DNA of 61,933 nt, the filler included. It is 3 parts of 3 records of this genome, joined end to end, with 100 filler letters (N's around TTAATTAATTAA, not from the genome) between each part and the next. Parts side by side here need not be neighbours in the genome. Positions count along the whole stretch, not along the records: positions 33,327 to 61,933 come from SRR20825010_1568; 2 more parts are not named here. One strand, 5' to 3'. How positions within the stretch are numbered: position 1 is the first letter of the stretch; every line of letters starts with the position of its first letter. Made by a program: the position numbers and the translations under genes. Under the pieces are notes generated by a model, which did no database searches, was not told the DNA's origin, and saw nothing but the letters and a program-made list of their open reading frames with translations. Of this stretch, positions 40,303 to 47,528 are shown in pieces.

Positions 40303-40317
40303 TTAAAGTCTTGTTAA
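40303..40317. promoter_or_regulatory. Putative CtrA-binding site
   Basis: TTAA-AGTCTTG-TTAA (TTAA-N7-TTAA) in an AT-rich divergent promoter, 51 bp upstream of the Hpt gene. Confidence 0.55.
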
Positions 40318-40867: not shown

Positions 40868-41365
40868 ATGACCAGCACAGAAGTTGTTACCCGCGGGGCG
40901 ACACGCCTGCTTCTGGAGCTTGGCTATGCTCCCATCACTGAAGTGCCGCTTACTAATGGGCGCCGGGCTGATATTGTATCGCTGGACCCAAAAGGGCACT
41001 GCATGATTGTGGAGGTGAAGTCGGGCCTTGCTGATTTCCGTAGTGACCACAAATGGCAGGAATATCTCGACTACGGCGAAGAGTTTTATTTCGCGGTTGA
41101 TCAGGACTTCCCGCTTGAGGTTCTGAATGAAGAGACAAGCCTGCCGGACATTACCGGTATTATGATAGCGGATGCTTATGGTGCAGAAATTCTTCGCCCC
41201 GCTGCCAACCGGCGCGTGAACGCGGCACGCAAAAAAACACTAACCCTCAAGATGGCACGGCTTGGCGGTATGCGCCTTGCGGAACAGGTGACGGGCGCAC
41301 CGGGTTTGACGCGCCCAGGTTCACCAGCCCCGAGTTCAACACCCCTGATCAGGGGCCTTCTTTAA
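40868..41365 (+). CDS. mmcB: MmcB family DNA repair protein (PD-(D/E)xK)
   Basis: EVPLTNGRRAD, IVEVKS, DFRSDHKW..Y, ADAYGAEILR; ATG 40868 preferred. Confidence 0.85.
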   Translation: MTSTEVVTRGATRLLLELGYAPITEVPLTNGRRADIVSLDPKGHCMIVEVKSGLADFRSDHKWQEYLDYGEEFYFAVDQDFPLEVLNEETSLPDITGIMIADAYGAEILRPAANRRVNAARKKTLTLKMARLGGMRLAEQVTGAPGLTRPGSPAPSSTPLIRGLL

Positions 41366-43403
41366 CGACCTGCGTATAACTCTGCCAACGGCTGCGGCCG
41401 TCCTTGTTTTCCAGGATATTCTGCAACGCGGCTACCGTGCGGCGCTCATAGCGCTTGCCTGCGTCTCCGTTCAGGATATCAAGCGCCTTGTCAAAGCCGA
41501 GCCCTTCACGGTGCGCGCGTGCGGACACCATGCCAACAAAAGCGTTGGCAACGCTAAGCACTCGGGCGCCGGGCTCGATAGCTTCGCCTTTTTTGCCGTC
41601 GGGTTCGCCTGAGCCGTCCCAGTTTTCGCGCATTTCACCAAGGATGGCCGCCACCGGCCCTTTGAAGTCGAGCCCCGCCACAAGGGTTGAGCCCTTTTGC
41701 ATGCTTTCACGCACAAGGGCGATCTCCTCATCCGTCAGCCCGCTCTGTTTGGTCAAAATCTCGGTTGGCACAAAAATCTTGCCAAGGTTCACCAGCTGGC
41801 CCGCGATACGCACGCTTTCACATGTGTCTGCGTCCCAGCCCATTTCTGCGGCGATGGCAGAGGCAACGTCCGCCACACGAACAGAGTGGTGTTTGCTCCA
41901 GGGGTCGCGCGCATCAATGATCTGGGTGAGGGTGCTGACAAGCTGTTTGAAAAGCGTTTCAGACTGTTCCTTCGCGCGCACCAGAGACGAGATATCCTGC
42001 ATCACCAGAAGGGCATTCGCCTTGTCCTGGCCAGCGCCTTCAAGCGGCAACAGCTGGGTTTGGAAAATGCGTTCAGCGTCGCCCACCGGCAAGGTGAGCT
42101 GCATCTCGGAGCTTTGGCCTTTGCTGACCGACTTAAGGCCGCTGCGAAGCTTGTCCGCCGTGTCGCTCTTGAAAGCAGTATCCAGCCGGCGATTGGTGAG
42201 GTCTGAAACGGATATATCCGTCACCTCGCCCAGCTTCTTGTTGGCAAAGCGCACGGTCAGGTCACTATCAAGCGCGGCGATTGCCGTAGGCTGGCTGTCG
42301 CTTACAGATTGAAGGAACCGGCTCAGGGCCTCATTCTGTTTGGAAAGCGCCGCTTGTTCCCGGTAGCTGGCCTGAAGGCGGATGGAAACACCGTGGCGCC
42401 ACACAAGGACAAGACCGGCGAGCACAAAAAGCGCCGCCAGCGACAGCGTGATAATCAGGCCGTTGCGCCGTTCGTTAATCTCGGACAATGCCTCCTGTGC
42501 GCTGATCGTGCGTACCAGAACCCAAGGCACCGGGGCCGAAAGCTCCCGACCTGTTACCAAAACTTTCGTCCCTGCATAATTGGGGCGCATACCAAAAGCA
42601 CCCGGCGCGGTGGCGGCAAATGCGGCCGCTGCATCCCGCCGGGCTTCGCCAACACGGCCACCTTCTGCAAGCGGCGTCAGGGGAGTTACAAGGTCATCCT
42701 GCCCGCGAACCACAACATAGGTTTCGCCTGTCTTGCTGGCGGCACCGGGTTGTTTGAGTGTGTTCAGGAAATCACTGTCCAAAGGTCGGGCGCCAATCAC
42801 CCAATTGATGGCCGCAGGGTCGCCCGCCATGCCTTCGGATGCCACAACAGGCGCACCAAAAATCACCAGTGGTGTTTTATCTTCAAGTTGTGGCCCAACG
42901 GCGATGAAAGATCCGCGCGCATCAGACGGCCATTCGCCGGGGCGCAGGATTGGCATGCCGCTGGTGGTCACCATGGCGCTGCCGTCACCGCGAAGGATGG
43001 CAAGGCCTGCGCGTTGTGGGCGTTTGATGTTGGCGGCCAACTGGTCAATGGCGGTTTTCTCTTGGAAACCTTCCCGTTCGGCTGCAGCGGAGAGAAGCGC
43101 GAACACATATCCGCGTTGGCCTTCGGCCGCTTCGGGCATGTCATCCATCCCGCCCGCGTAAAGCTGGATCGTGGCGTCGCTCGCCAACGCTTCCACGCTT
43201 GCGAGGTAGCGGTTCAACCAGGCAGAAACCTCGGTGGCGCGGCTGTCAGCGATAAGGTTGATCCTGTCCTGCCAGCGCATCATATCCTGTTCAGCTTCTG
43301 ATTCGGCGAATTTGAGAATCGCGAAAAAACCGAGTGCGGCGACAGCTAAAATGCCTGCCCCCGCTATCAGAATGGATTTGCTGCCGTTTTTTTTGCCTGC
43401 CAT
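41349..43403 (-). CDS. Membrane protein: TM-periplasmic (Cache-like)-TM-PAS-degenerate HD-GYP
   Basis: Two TM helices around a large periplasmic domain; PAS start QPTAIAALD..VRFAN; HD-GYP scaffold ARDPW..HSVRV, VNLGKI, ENWDGSGEP, ARVLSVANAF. Confidence 0.85.
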   Translation of the reverse strand: MAGKKNGSKSILIAGAGILAVAALGFFAILKFAESEAEQDMMRWQDRINLIADSRATEVSAWLNRYLASVEALASDATIQLYAGGMDDMPEAAEGQRGYVFALLSAAAEREGFQEKTAIDQLAANIKRPQRAGLAILRGDGSAMVTTSGMPILRPGEWPSDARGSFIAVGPQLEDKTPLVIFGAPVVASEGMAGDPAAINWVIGARPLDSDFLNTLKQPGAASKTGETYVVVRGQDDLVTPLTPLAEGGRVGEARRDAAAAFAATAPGAFGMRPNYAGTKVLVTGRELSAPVPWVLVRTISAQEALSEINERRNGLIITLSLAALFVLAGLVLVWRHGVSIRLQASYREQAALSKQNEALSRFLQSVSDSQPTAIAALDSDLTVRFANKKLGEVTDISVSDLTNRRLDTAFKSDTADKLRSGLKSVSKGQSSEMQLTLPVGDAERIFQTQLLPLEGAGQDKANALLVMQDISSLVRAKEQSETLFKQLVSTLTQIIDARDPWSKHHSVRVADVASAIAAEMGWDADTCESVRIAGQLVNLGKIFVPTEILTKQSGLTDEEIALVRESMQKGSTLVAGLDFKGPVAAILGEMRENWDGSGEPDGKKGEAIEPGARVLSVANAFVGMVSARAHREGLGFDKALDILNGDAGKRYERRTVAALQNILENKDGRSRWQSYTQVVKEGP

Positions 43404-43558
43404 AAGTTGCCCCCTGTGGCCGGAAGACCCGGTCCTTTTCCCTGCATCACCTCGGACAATAGTCTAGCCCGGTAAGGAAGTGACTTGGAACATCAAAATC
43501 ATCACACTATGTTTAAACGCTCTGCCTTCGGGCACAAACAATTTTGGTACGGGATTAT

Positions 43559-44242
43559 ATGTCAGGCTTGCTGCGCTCGCTTACAATCTGTGTAGTTTTG
43601 CTGCTTTTTGTCGCTGAGCCACAGGCGTGGGCGCAGGTCCGCATGGGAGGCTTGTTTGGCAGCATGGAACTGCGGTCCACCAATATGACCAAGTTTGCCA
43701 AATGGACCGAGATGTGGCAGCGCCACAACAAACCAAAAACATTGCCTGAAGCGCCCACAGGAAGCGCCGCAGAACGTTGCAGAGGGGCGGGGCGTGTGGT
43801 TTGCAGTCGCGAAGCGTGGGATGTTTTTGTTGGCGAACAGCAGGAAACGCCGGCCCGTGAACAGTTGGATGCTGTGAATGCCTATATGAACCGGGCGGCC
43901 TATATCGTTGACCCGGTGAACTGGGGCATTCCGGACTATTGGGCAACGCCCGACGAGTTCTTCCTTAAGGACGGAGACTGTGAAGATTACGCCATCAGCA
44001 AATATATCACCCTTAAGCGTCTGGGCGTCGATCCGGAAAGCATGCGCCTTGTTATCCTGCAGGATGAAAACCTGCATGTAGCGCACGCGGTACTTGCGGT
44101 CGAACTGGAGGATGTAACCTATATCCTTGATAACCAGATCGATAGCGTCTTGCCCGACACCCAGATTTTGCATTACAGACCAGTTTATTCGATCAATGAA
44201 AGCGCGTGGTGGTTGCATCGGGTTAAGAAGTTTTCAGGGTAA
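43559..44242 (+). CDS. Transglutaminase-like cysteine protease (BTLCP, LapG-like)
   Basis: Signal peptide ending AWA; DYWATPDEF, GDCEDYAISKY, HAVLAV, YILDN give the Cys-His-Asp triad; PVYSINE. Confidence 0.92.
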   Translation: MSGLLRSLTICVVLLLFVAEPQAWAQVRMGGLFGSMELRSTNMTKFAKWTEMWQRHNKPKTLPEAPTGSAAERCRGAGRVVCSREAWDVFVGEQQETPAREQLDAVNAYMNRAAYIVDPVNWGIPDYWATPDEFFLKDGDCEDYAISKYITLKRLGVDPESMRLVILQDENLHVAHAVLAVELEDVTYILDNQIDSVLPDTQILHYRPVYSINESAWWLHRVKKFSG

Positions 44243-44309
44243 ATTAACTTAATTTATCTTATCATCCGCGACAGCAGACACCGTAGGGCAAGGCTGGATT
44301 AATATCTAC

Positions 44310-45641
44310 GTGAGCAAAGACCTGACATCGCTCGACCGCATGGTTGACTATGTAAAGCAGTTGCGGCGCCACGCCGAAGGGCGACGCGCGGTTCATATTC
44401 GCCTGTCTGCGCTTGAACGCTATTTCCGTGAGGAACATTACCGCTTGTTTGCAGCCGCCGCCCTCAGGGGGGTGATCACGCGTTTTGGGGCAACCATGTT
44501 TGCACTTCCCAACGCCGATCTGGTGCTGATCACAAAAGACGCGAGCGTGCATGACATTGACCCCTCTCTGAACGCCATTCGTCGCAAGTTGAAAGATTCC
44601 TCGCTTATCGCATCCCTCGACCCGGTTCAGGGGGTGAGCGACGAGTTTGTCGTCTGGTTTGACCTTGAAGCTGACTATGAAGAGTTCAAGAATTACGCCG
44701 AGCAATTGAGCGATTTGTTGCGGCTTGGCGAAACGGCACCTGAGCAGATGGGCGAAAACAGTGAGCTGACGCTCAAGAAAGTTGGTAGCAAAAAGGGCCC
44801 GAAAGGCTTGATCAAGCCGCCGGAAGATGACAGCCCGCCTATGGCGTATCAGCCCAGCCATGTGCGCATGATGCCGGTGATACCGCCTGCGAAGGAAGAA
44901 GTTACCGATCGAGACCTGGATCCGGAACTTTTGCTGACCCTGACAAAAGCGCTGCAGGGCGCGGATGTTGCGGGTCTGCTGCGCAAACAGTTCGTGAAGG
45001 CCATTTTGGGCAGCTCACCACCAATGCCTGTGCTGGAACACAAGTTTGTGCCGCGTAAGCTTGTCTATGAAACCTTGCTTGAGGGCCGAGTGCTGGCGGA
45101 AAACCGCTGGCTGTCCGGCTATATGGATGATCTTGTTGCGCGGCAGGTTCTGGCGTCCACACCCGGTATGACCAATGAAGCCTCGCTCGCATCCAGCATC
45201 AAGGTTACCAGCGCCGCGGTATTGTCTCCAGCTTTTGAGATATTCGAGAAGTCACTCGGCACACAGCGGCGTTCCAAAGTGGTGATCGAGTTTAGCGCGG
45301 TTGATGTCATTGCAAACCCTGTGGCCTACCAAGCGGCCATCGCCATGTTGCTTGGGGCCGGGTATCGGCTCTCAATAGGGGATTTGCACCCGCTTGCGTT
45401 TCTTGCCATTGATATCGAGCCCATGCAGGCCGCTTTTGTGAAAATCGCGCTGCCGCCCGGTAACAAGGTTGATTGGCTGAATAATAAAACCGAGACAGCA
45501 ATTCAGAACAAAATCGACCGCGTCGGCAAGGCGCGGGTGATTCTTGATGGATGTGCGGAGCCGACGGATATCGACCTTGGCCATCTTTTGGGGATCACGC
45601 TGTTCCAGGGGCAGGCCGTAGACCCGATGATCTCCGCCTAA
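44310..45641 (+). CDS. Cytoplasmic protein with degenerate EAL-like C-terminal domain
   Basis: VVIEFS, GYRLSIGDL, FVKI, VILDGC, LGITLFQG follow EAL motif order but lack EAL, DDFG and EGVE. Confidence 0.65.
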   Translation: MSKDLTSLDRMVDYVKQLRRHAEGRRAVHIRLSALERYFREEHYRLFAAAALRGVITRFGATMFALPNADLVLITKDASVHDIDPSLNAIRRKLKDSSLIASLDPVQGVSDEFVVWFDLEADYEEFKNYAEQLSDLLRLGETAPEQMGENSELTLKKVGSKKGPKGLIKPPEDDSPPMAYQPSHVRMMPVIPPAKEEVTDRDLDPELLLTLTKALQGADVAGLLRKQFVKAILGSSPPMPVLEHKFVPRKLVYETLLEGRVLAENRWLSGYMDDLVARQVLASTPGMTNEASLASSIKVTSAAVLSPAFEIFEKSLGTQRRSKVVIEFSAVDVIANPVAYQAAIAMLLGAGYRLSIGDLHPLAFLAIDIEPMQAAFVKIALPPGNKVDWLNNKTETAIQNKIDRVGKARVILDGCAEPTDIDLGHLLGITLFQGQAVDPMISA

Positions 45642-45645
45642 CCGC

Positions 45646-46194
45646 TTACTGGGGGGACCGTTTTGCCAAGATGCGCTGCAACGTGCGCCGGTGCATGTTG
45701 AGCCGCCGCGCGGTCTCAGACACGTTCCTGTCGCACATCTCATACACACGCTGAATATGCTCCCATTTCACCCGATCTGCCGACATGGGGTTTTCTGGCA
45801 CTGGTGGTGTTTGACCTTCTGGCGTCAGGAGTGCAGCGGCAATCTGGTCAGGGTCCGCCGGTTTGGCGAGGAAGTCCACTGCACCAGCCTTTACCGCCGC
45901 GACAGCGCTCGCGAGATTGCCGTATCCGGTGAGGATAATGACCCGCATATCAGGGCGAATTTGGCGAAGCGACGGTACAAGGTCGAGGCCGTTGCCGTCC
46001 TCAAGTTTCATATCCACCACGGCATACCGTGGCCGGTGTTGAGACGCGAGGATAGCACCTTCCTCAATGCCTTCTGCGGCATAAACCTTAAAGCCTCGAC
46101 GCTCCATCGAGACAGTAAGCCGTGTGCGGAACGCTTTGTCATCCTCAACAATCAGCAGGCTTTTTTCGGTATGATCGGTGTGTGTATCGTTCAT
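45646..46194 (-). CDS. regA: RegA/PrrA/ActR response regulator
   Basis: LLIVEDD, VVDMKL, LTGYGN, PMSADRVKWEHIQRVYEMCDRNVSETARRLNMHRRTLQRIL. Confidence 0.96.
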   Translation of the reverse strand: MNDTHTDHTEKSLLIVEDDKAFRTRLTVSMERRGFKVYAAEGIEEGAILASQHRPRYAVVDMKLEDGNGLDLVPSLRQIRPDMRVIILTGYGNLASAVAAVKAGAVDFLAKPADPDQIAAALLTPEGQTPPVPENPMSADRVKWEHIQRVYEMCDRNVSETARRLNMHRRTLQRILAKRSPQ

Positions 46195-47528
46195 GCTTTT
46201 TTATCCTGTCGTGGTTCTTGCGGTGCAAACTCTAGCCGTCGCCTGGGCCATTCTATCAGAATTTCTGCACCGCCGGCGCTACCCATGCCAAATTCTACTG
46301 TGGCGCCTGTGCGTTCAAGCAGTGTTTTGGCAATGAAAAGCCCAAGGCCCAGCCCGCCGTCCCGTCCCGGTGTGGGGTGGCGCGTGGTGACATAGGGCTC
46401 ACCAAGGCGGCGAATGATCTGCGGGTCGAAGCCGGGCCCATCATCGACGATGGTGATGGAAACTGTATCCTCATCCCATCCTGCGCTGACCTGAACGAGG
46501 GACGTTGCGTAGCCGACTGCATTTTCAACGATATTGCGTATGGCATGAATAAACTCAGGCGAACGTCCCACTCTCAGCGCACCAATGCCGTCAGCTACAA
46601 ATTTGATTTTGATGCCGCGTTCTTCGTGCGGTGCGGCTGCTTCTCGCAAAAGGGCTTCAAGCTCGATATGGGTGAAATGCTCAGCGGAGCCTGCCTGCCG
46701 GTGCTCACGCAATTGCGAGAGGATATCGCGGCAACGACTGGTTTCCTGTACGATCAGCTCGAGGTCAGCTTTGGTATCACCATCGCCTTCCCATGTTTCC
46801 AACAATTCCTTGGAGGCGAGCAGGATGGTGCCAAGCGGGGTGCCAAGTTCGTGCGCGGCAGCGGCCGCCAATGTGCCAAGCGCCGCAAGCCGCTGTTCGT
46901 GCTCAAGCGCTGCCTGTGTGGCCGCCAGCGCCCGCGCCCGGTGGCGCCCTTCGCGCCCGACCCGCGCCATATAAAGCGCGAGGAACACAAGCGTAAAACA
47001 CAGCGCGATCCAAAGCCCTGCGAGTAGAAGCGGGTCAATGCGCGGCGGGGTGCCGTCCCACGGTAGCGGGAAGGGCGTGAACGCCAGCGCGGTTACCAGT
47101 AGGAGCGAAAGCATGATCAGATATTTGGTGCTGCGCCGCCCGAGAATGGACGCCGACACGCTGGTGGGAGATATCATCAGCAGCGCAAAAGGGTTTGCGA
47201 GCCCACCGGTCACAAATAGAAGCGCCGCGAGGTGGACGAGGTCAAATGCCAAATGGGCGGCAGATTGCCGGTCATTCAGCCGGGTGTTTTTGTCCGCCCG
47301 GAAGGAAAACCACATGTTGATCAGCGCAGACACAAGCACAATAGGCAACGTGAAGTGCAGGAGCAGGTCAAACCGCAGCACACCGCCAACCACGATCAGC
47401 GCGAGAAGTTGGCCCGCGATACCCATCCAGCGAATCATCACAAGCGTGCCAAGCCGCACGCCGCCGCCATGGGGCATATCGAGATCAAACAGGATCAGGT
47501 CTTCATTGTCTTTTTTGTTTTGTGGCAC
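46191..47528 (-). CDS. regB: RegB/PrrB/ActS redox sensor kinase
   Basis: GGLANPF quinone-site motif, AAAAHELGTPL H-box, RCRDIL Cys, DDGPGF, GLGLGLFI. Confidence 0.95.
   Translation of the reverse strand: MPQNKKDNEDLILFDLDMPHGGGVRLGTLVMIRWMGIAGQLLALIVVGGVLRFDLLLHFTLPIVLVSALINMWFSFRADKNTRLNDRQSAAHLAFDLVHLAALLFVTGGLANPFALLMISPTSVSASILGRRSTKYLIMLSLLLVTALAFTPFPLPWDGTPPRIDPLLLAGLWIALCFTLVFLALYMARVGREGRHRARALAATQAALEHEQRLAALGTLAAAAAHELGTPLGTILLASKELLETWEGDGDTKADLELIVQETSRCRDILSQLREHRQAGSAEHFTHIELEALLREAAAPHEERGIKIKFVADGIGALRVGRSPEFIHAIRNIVENAVGYATSLVQVSAGWDEDTVSITIVDDGPGFDPQIIRRLGEPYVTTRHPTPGRDGGLGLGLFIAKTLLERTGATVEFGMGSAGGAEILIEWPRRRLEFAPQEPRQDKKA

Follow-up and report, generated by a model that had tools for sequence, protein, structure and literature searches.

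The 61,933-nucleotide stretch of DNA analyzed here (the window) carries, in the part that comes from record SRR20825010_1568, a membrane receptor gene and a cysteine protease gene that diverge from a short spacer. Judged by domain architecture, by the loss of active-site residues, and by their pairing, the two genes form a system of the kind of DvhD/DvhG, the receptor/protease pair (DVU1020/DVU1019) of Desulfovibrio vulgaris Hildenborough described in two reports (PMC10990149, PMC13090378; structures PDB 9RC0, 9RBZ, and 9RC2). Locus L001, from a Kordiimonas sp. metagenome-assembled genome, is 99.75% identical to the window across 20,077 bases. Kordiimonas is a marine alphaproteobacterium, and named homologues come from Kordiimonas, Pseudokordiimonas, Temperatibacter, and Yunchengibacter. 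For genome-wide questions we used as a proxy the nearest genome, G001, which is not the source of the window; it consists of one contig, is 100% complete, has 42% of the sampled 31-mers in common with the window, and encodes a periplasmic receptor domain that is 100% identical.

The open reading frames and the ATG-to-ATG spacer place three genes as an earlier note on this DNA had drawn them, followed by a two-component pair on the opposite strand to the third gene:

41349..43403, minus strand: DvhD-like inner-membrane receptor, 684 amino acids, in the order transmembrane helix, dCache, transmembrane helix, PAS, stalk, degenerate HD-GYP
42468..43310, minus strand: periplasmic dCache domain of the receptor (about residues 32–312), by fold match to DvhD 9rc2
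41982..42317, minus strand: PAS domain (residues 363–474), by the PAS_4 match and alignment to the PAS domain of DvhD 9rc0
41406..41951, minus strand: HD-GYP domain, catalytically dead by its motifs and a probable receptor of cyclic di-GMP (c-di-GMP), by alignment to DvhD and conservation counts
43404..43558, no strand: divergent promoter spacer, 155 bp from ATG to ATG, by sequence and motif scans
43559..44242, plus strand: LapG/DvhG-type BTLCP cysteine protease, 227 amino acids, probable signal peptide, by Peptidase_C93, LapG structures, and invariant columns
44310..45641, plus strand: cytoplasmic protein with degenerate GGDEF-like and EAL domains, 443 amino acids, an optional neighbor, by AlphaFold2, Foldseek, and distribution
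45646..47528, minus strand: two-component pair outside the switch, by Pfam, which we take to be RegA/RegB-like

A receptor with the architecture of DvhD and a decayed active site

Pfam assigned PAS_4 (E 1.6e-9) and HD_5 (E 5.5e-38) domains to the receptor, and its hydropathy profile has two hydrophobic helices (starting at about residues 7–17 and 313–323) that enclose approximately 280 periplasmic residues. With the AlphaFold2 model (56 sequences; predicted local distance difference test score, pLDDT, of 85; predicted template modeling score of 0.51) and its comparison by Foldseek and VIA-align, these features give the transmembrane-dCache-transmembrane-PAS-HD-GYP architecture of DvhD. The best sequence matches in the PDB were 9rc0 (E 8.5e-37) and 9rbz (E 1.6e-30), both of which Foldseek names as DvhD; the next family scored 1.5e-19, and a profile search likewise ranked DvhD (7.7e-67) ahead of it (2.3e-40). 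The model aligned with DvhD's HD-GYP domain at a VIA-align Z score of 26.8 and with its combined PAS/HD-GYP region at 25.6. Only this cytoplasmic half matches DvhD by sequence. The dCache domain does so by fold alone, with a Foldseek E value of 9.6e-6 and a template modeling score of 0.71 (by target) to the periplasmic domain in 9rc2 and a VIA Z score of 17.2 over 235 aligned residues (root-mean-square deviation 3.5 Å, 12% identity). A search of a plasmid collection with the receptor returned matches to the HD-GYP domain only, none of them covering more than 80% of the query.

The HD, HH, and GYP motifs of active HD-GYP phosphodiesterases are not intact in the receptor. The metal ligands are lost through the replacement of HD by VN (residues 538–539), HH by MR (591–592), and GYP by GEP, and an asparagine (N620) stands where active enzymes have an aspartate. 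Judged by these substitutions, the domain is catalytically dead, which upholds the earlier description of a membrane HD-GYP pseudo-enzyme. Using an offset of 21 residues confirmed by VIA-align, we mapped onto the receptor the 12 c-di-GMP contacts of DvhD given in PMC13090378. Five are identical (P546, L556, M625, R629, and R632), four are conservative replacements (R499, W502, H631, and D647), and three are lost. Mutating the two arginines of DvhD that correspond to R629 and R632 impairs its stabilization by c-di-GMP, according to the same source (PMC13090378). Among 197 homologues (61 loci plus 136 representatives of 600–800 amino acids), 194 retain R629, 195 retain R632, and 191 retain N539; the bridging proline and the Leu/Met clamp are largely conserved as well, and many residues of the dCache domain are invariant. 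The family is therefore a conserved pseudo-enzyme that probably still serves as a nucleotide receptor.

A LapG-family protease with an intact catalytic triad

The divergent gene encodes a member of Peptidase_C93 (Pfam E 5.9e-17) related to the LapG structures 4fgo (E 5e-21) and 4u65 (E 6e-20), although it scores far under the cut-off of the LapG equivalog model (99 vs. 320 bits). The catalytic triad C141-H176-D191 (C141 codon at 43979–43981) and the calcium site D140/E142 are invariant in all 75 aligned homologues, so the BTLCP protease with an intact C-H-D triad read from the window at first stands. Hydropathy predicts a probable signal peptide. Translation could start at the ATG at 43559 (227 amino acids) or at a TTG at 43544 (232 amino acids). 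The second BTLCP of G001 belongs to an unrelated, lipoprotein-like subfamily (12 vs. 379 bits). Elsewhere, two BTLCP genes lie near one receptor at loci L055, L058, L062, L093, and L095, and in the first three of these the second copy is 3′ of T1SS (type I secretion system) genes.

The pair is a widespread alphaproteobacterial module

The periplasmic domain of the receptor alone matched 72 of 401 genomes (the unpublished genome G042 among the 401) spread across the Alphaproteobacteria; two matches were marginal, and the remaining 70 genomes were used for all overlaps. We fetched 60 loci from 59 receptor genomes of this class sample, leaving out 12 further receptor genomes. A BTLCP gene adjoins the receptor in 53 of the 60, with 48 scored as divergent, and the pairing is kept across many families and in varied gene contexts. 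Within the Kordiimonadaceae, 43 of 45 genomes have the receptor and all 20 fetched loci have the protease. The synteny survey that the earlier note had proposed as a check on the pair thus supports it.

Neighbor counts covered 62 loci, i.e., the 60 class loci together with L001 and L002. The most frequent company was a metallophosphoesterase (28 loci), followed by a RegA-like response regulator (16), a kinase (15), a sugar transferase (15), and Wzc (12). A T1SS membrane-fusion gene lies by the receptor in 11 of the 62 loci and an RTX open reading frame in three. Because the receptor domain occurs in so many genomes of the class and in nearly all of the family, usually divergent with a protease gene and away from T1SS genes, we regard the DvhD/DvhG pair as a widespread alphaproteobacterial module. 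In about one-quarter of the loci (L047, L052, L063, L065, L085, L087, L088, and L093–L095) the pair sits inside a Wzy/Wzc-type polysaccharide cluster.

Relationship to DvhD/DvhG and LapD/LapG

Like DvhD/DvhG, the Kordiimonas locus pairs a dCache-transmembrane-PAS-dead HD-GYP receptor with a BTLCP that has a C-H-D triad and a calcium site; the metal ligands are lost, the RxxR site and bridging proline are kept, and no LapD was found. DvhD already includes a PAS domain (PMC13090378), and the PAS domain of the window is therefore not the new feature that it had been taken for. Other traits set the systems apart. The Kordiimonas genes are divergent and do not lie by T1SS or adhesin genes, which are operon-linked in the DvhD/DvhG system; T1SS genes are also missing at most of the alphaproteobacterial loci surveyed. 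The Kordiimonas protease is short and has a probable signal peptide, unlike the membrane-anchored DvhG of D. vulgaris, although most DvhG orthologues are described as having signal peptides. The dCache domains are only 12–14% identical, and neither a DvhA/LapA-type adhesin nor a LapB-type ATPase was found in the 45 Kordiimonadaceae genomes. The comparison with LapD/LapG of Pseudomonas fluorescens is of another sort: the protease is of the LapG family and the regulatory logic would be alike, but the receptor is unrelated to LapD, having no LapD_MoxY_N, HAMP, or GGDEF-EAL domains. A search for a separate LapD in G001 (LapD_MoxY_N) returned nothing and was silent in its controls too. The Kordiimonas system would thus act in the manner of LapD/LapG while falling outside that group.

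The published work presents DvhDG as a system of sulfate-reducing bacteria that may have arisen when LapD was replaced after transfer (PMC10990149, PMC13090378). Supplementary Dataset 1 of PMC13090378 places Pelagibius, Denitrobaculum, Kiloniella, Fodinicurvata, Oceanibacterium, and Sneathiella among the full-length DvhD homologues in DvhDG neighborhoods (BLAST cut-off of 85% cover and E 1e-50). We checked that Kiloniella and Sneathiella are alphaproteobacterial, as the other four genera are. With these six genera in the dataset, we rejected the idea that the window holds the first alphaproteobacterial DvhDG (PMC13090378). The proposal of a DvhD/DvhG analogue in an alphaproteobacterium is thus borne out as to the type of system (homology, fold, degenerate site, divergent pairing, and no LapD domain found) and not as to its novelty: the system is already published, and the Kordiimonas locus is a further copy of the DvhD/DvhG biofilm switch. 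Kordiimonas was not found in Supplementary Dataset 1, nor the word Alphaproteobacteria in the main text (PMC13090378). A literature search that left most subscription journals outside found no alphaproteobacterial study of either the pair or the third gene, and no experiment on any member from this class. The remaining interest lies in the missing substrate of a pair that nearly all genomes of the family carry. Kordiimonas is an aerobic, culturable organism and a host in which the proposed contact between dCache domain and protease can be examined.

Proposed mechanism of the switch

The reading that we favor, and consider fairly probable, is that the receptor/protease pair operates as an alphaproteobacterial DvhD/DvhG inside-out switch to which the third gene is an optional addition. 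By analogy with DvhD, the dead HD-GYP domain would bind c-di-GMP through the conserved R629-x-x-R632; G001 has 15 GGDEF matches. As the DvhD structures suggest, binding would splay the stalk helices and send the signal via the PAS domain and the membrane helices to the dCache domain. At high c-di-GMP levels the dCache domain would retain the calcium-dependent BTLCP, and at low levels the freed protease would cut a periplasmic anchor and release a surface structure. For relatives that have a LapB-type exporter, the probable substrate is a giant RTX adhesin whose N-terminal part carries a small beta domain and a helix together with an xAQ[A/S/T]G site. In the Kordiimonadaceae, where no such RTX adhesin was found, the substrate would be an unrecognized one.

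Contact between DvhD and its protease is a model even in Desulfovibrio. The complex prediction that the earlier note had called for gave our dCache-protease pair a score of 0.34, compared to 0.01 for the best of three controls, with contacts agreeing between runs at 0% or more and a partner pLDDT of at least 68. Among solved complexes, 51 of 78 attained the mark applied to such predictions, as did 2 of 108 mismatched pairs; at scores of 0.60 or below, it was attained by only 5 of the 78 solved complexes and by all 4 mismatches that passed. The prediction lends weak support to a complex and moves the odds little.

Several observations weigh against our interpretation. The fold match of the dCache domain to 9rc2 (Z 17.2) is tied with that to the dCache domain of the chemoreceptor PctA (Z 17.6), and no sequence-level match to 9rc2 emerged, including from a profile search with the dCache sequence. 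The DvhD contacts R569, K582, and Y621 are lost here (E548, I561, and E600) and are variable in the family. In G001, retention_LapA had no matches, no LssB/LapB ATPase scored over the cut-off, and the motif [TAP]AAG is absent from the first 600 residues of the three large RTX proteins.

Candidate substrates

A candidate substrate can be outlined in other Alphaproteobacteria. Candidate adhesins there are encoded by open reading frames of up to 6,679 amino acids (RTX repeats were confirmed in one). At their N-termini, a short beta domain precedes a helix and xAQ[A/S/T]G, and a FecR-like domain comes next. This beta domain-helix-xAQ[A/S/T]G module parallels the layout of DvhA (PMC13090378), by analogy with which we infer that the motif is a candidate DvhG-type cleavage site and the module a candidate retention module. 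Members of one version of it (module A5; L106, L107, L109, and L113–L116) match BapA_N weakly in six of seven cases. Very large proteins that start with the retention-like module occur in 57 of the 401 genomes: 31 of the 70 receptor genomes (26 of 65 once the five seed genomes are set aside) compared to 26 of the 331 others, in a sample whose related genomes are not independent. An LssB/LapB ATPase scored over the cut-off in at least 29 of the 70 receptor genomes and at least 55 of the 331 others (including the unpublished G242); these counts are lower bounds because two candidates were scored per genome, and here too kin are not independent.

Substrate searches in G001 and the 45 Kordiimonadaceae genomes, with profiles that may miss a divergent module, had a different outcome. 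LssB reached the cut-off in none of the 45 genomes (six sub-threshold matches), and a custom module (A4) matched none of them, its positive control being matches in two of four other receptor genomes. Module A5 gave 13 weak matches (E 0.009–0.04), none credible; the one that we opened was an aminopeptidase N, and the others are probably the same, judging from their length and position. BapA_N had no match over the cut-off in the 45 genomes and one below it, in a receptor-less genome, with silent controls, and a TPS search was negative in five of five genomes, its controls equally silent. Six FecR matches in G001 all fell in frames of 343–380 amino acids, and none belongs to a giant protein. 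The genome search proposed at the outset for an RTX adhesin with a retention module thus yielded none in G001 or in the family. Because 43 of the 45 genomes have the receptor and none gave a LapB-type exporter over the cut-off or a retention-module adhesin, the substrate in the Kordiimonadaceae may be of a new kind. If the family is truly without retention-module adhesins, a first substrate of the switch outside the LapA type could be sought there directly.

The same results admit a broader reading, which we consider possible and less probable than the one above. The pair would be a core locus with no tie to adhesins of the LapA type in the Kordiimonadaceae and in at most 27 of the 70 receptor genomes (those in which neither a LapB-type ATPase nor a retention-like module was found, an upper bound), gating the cleavage of an unrecognized class of periplasmic substrates and wired to the cell-cycle regulator CtrA in many lineages. 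Example substrates would be a polysaccharide-export anchor, given the sugar transferase or Wzc genes beside the receptor in 15 and 12 of the 62 loci, S-layer proteins, or RTX proteins of the DUF4347 type.

A single T1SS membrane-fusion gene of G001 exceeded the cut-off, with a PrtD-type ATPase, and the genome encodes three large RTX proteins: two with DUF4347-cadherin/VCBS-RTX organization (2,724 and 2,220 amino acids) and one of 1,155 amino acids. The genes for the first two lie at L007:7277–15451 (minus strand) and L008:8602–15264 (plus strand), and their DUF4347 domains have HG and ACS motifs. These motifs recall, in our reading, a caspase-like His/Cys dyad, and the proteins may self-process. 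DUF4347 occurs in 25 of the 45 Kordiimonadaceae genomes, fewer than have the receptor. Two near-identical RTX proteins of about 750 amino acids (L010:2534–4798 and L011:13872–16070), possibly S-layer proteins, are encoded on either side of the single PrtD-type T1SS of G001 and glycosylation genes.

The third gene is a recurrent and dispensable neighbor

The gene 67 bp downstream of the protease gene, on the same strand, encodes the degenerate EAL protein noted earlier, an assignment that holds. Its Pfam EAL match is under the cut-off (22 vs. 31.3 bits), and in its AlphaFold2 model (pLDDT 88) a disordered linker lies between a small alpha/beta domain at the N-terminus and an EAL barrel. The best Foldseek matches were GGDEF-EAL tandems, with the LapD module among them (6pwk at rank 7 and 3pjw at rank 10). 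The ESM Atlas grouped it with clusters that are EAL-like or hypothetical, one of which contained 13% GGDEF. Taking ExLxR, the metal-binding Asn, and DDFGTG as the reference motifs of an EAL phosphodiesterase, we found by our own alignment that the protein has no active-EAL motifs: HKF(VP) replaces EAL/ExLxR, K298 the metal-binding Asn, and DLHPLA the DDFGTG motif.

This resemblance to the cytoplasmic module of LapD, among other GGDEF-EAL tandems, and the position of the gene raise the question of a three-component system, in which the GGDEF-like/EAL protein would be a working part of the switch by binding the PAS/HD-GYP region of the receptor or c-di-GMP. In 17 of 20 Kordiimonadaceae loci the fetched stretch includes the gene, and in 9 of the 60 class loci, from several families, it lies directly 3′ of the protease gene (one more lies about 1 kb and another about 10 kb away). 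The family was found in 146 of the 401 genomes, and at a higher rate with the receptor (40 of 70) than without it (106 of 331). However, those 106 genomes have the gene and no receptor, and 30 of the 70 receptor genomes gave no match to it; on this distribution we rejected the gene as an obligatory partner. Within the Kordiimonadaceae, 41 of 45 genomes gave a match, including both receptor-less ones, and four receptor-bearing genomes gave none, three of them 100% complete; the gene is shortened to about 142 amino acids in three genomes and has an internal stop in two. The protein also appears, by our own alignment, to have no counterpart of the c-di-GMP-binding Arg of ExLxR. A three-component switch is therefore unlikely. 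With the gene mostly unlinked across the class, missing or cut in several receptor genomes, and kept in both receptor-less ones, the third cytoplasmic partner suggested earlier is weakened; the protein may still have a modulating role. The gene looks like a recurrent but dispensable neighbor, optional and not a core part of the switch. Genomes, including small ones, often carry several copies of its family, for which there is no NCBIfam name and which looks like an uncharacterized family in its own right.

Nucleotide specificity and gene linkage

Another reading accepts the pair and doubts its signal: the HD-GYP domain would be unresponsive to c-di-GMP or would prefer 3′3′-cGAMP or pGpG, and the receptor would mainly sense a ligand through its dCache domain or serve the protease as a constitutive scaffold. 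In favor of it, two of the three lost contacts, K582 and Y621, hold one phosphodiester in DvhD, which itself also binds 3′3′-cGAMP (PMC13090378), and the dCache domain is rich in invariant residues. The near-universal retention of the two c-di-GMP-critical arginines among the 197 homologues, with the bridging proline and Leu/Met clamp largely kept, argues against it, and we give this reading little weight beside the c-di-GMP switch. That the two genes merely have a common divergent promoter, with no functional link, is very improbable: a nearby BTLCP is missing at 7 of the 60 class loci, but the pairing persists at the other 53 across many families and contexts, and the Desulfovibrio pair is linked experimentally (PMC10990149).

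The divergent spacer and CtrA

The CtrA consensus is TTAA-N7-TTAA (PMC7200025). In 17 of the 62 loci a perfect copy is located close to the start of the receptor gene. After size matching, it occurs in 14 of 44 receptor-protease spacers compared to 2 of 48 other divergent spacers; among tandem spacers, 6 of 171 have it, and 24 of 8,800 shuffles did. A sigma-70 promoter scan performed at chance level. The window spacer has a two-mismatch CtrA-like site only, and none of 20 Kordiimonadaceae spacers has a perfect box. The CtrA link therefore concerns relatives and not the window locus. Perfect boxes in receptor-protease spacers occur among L046–L105, for example in L046, L067, and L068.

The longest open reading frame of the window encodes 788 amino acids, so the window holds no giant adhesin, as the earlier note had it; its companion statement, that the contig has no T1SS, stands for the 10 kb on either side of the pair in L001, where neither a T1SS nor an RTX gene was found, in a T1SS family scan that left out the first 36 kb of the window. 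Most one-mismatch matches to TTAA-N7-TTAA cluster at window positions of about 1–33000, where opposite-strand open reading frames are few, and this clustering and scarcity suggest an AT-rich segment unlike the rest of the window. The window also has a perfect CtrA-type box at 40303–40317, between a DUF3126 gene and an Hpt-domain gene.

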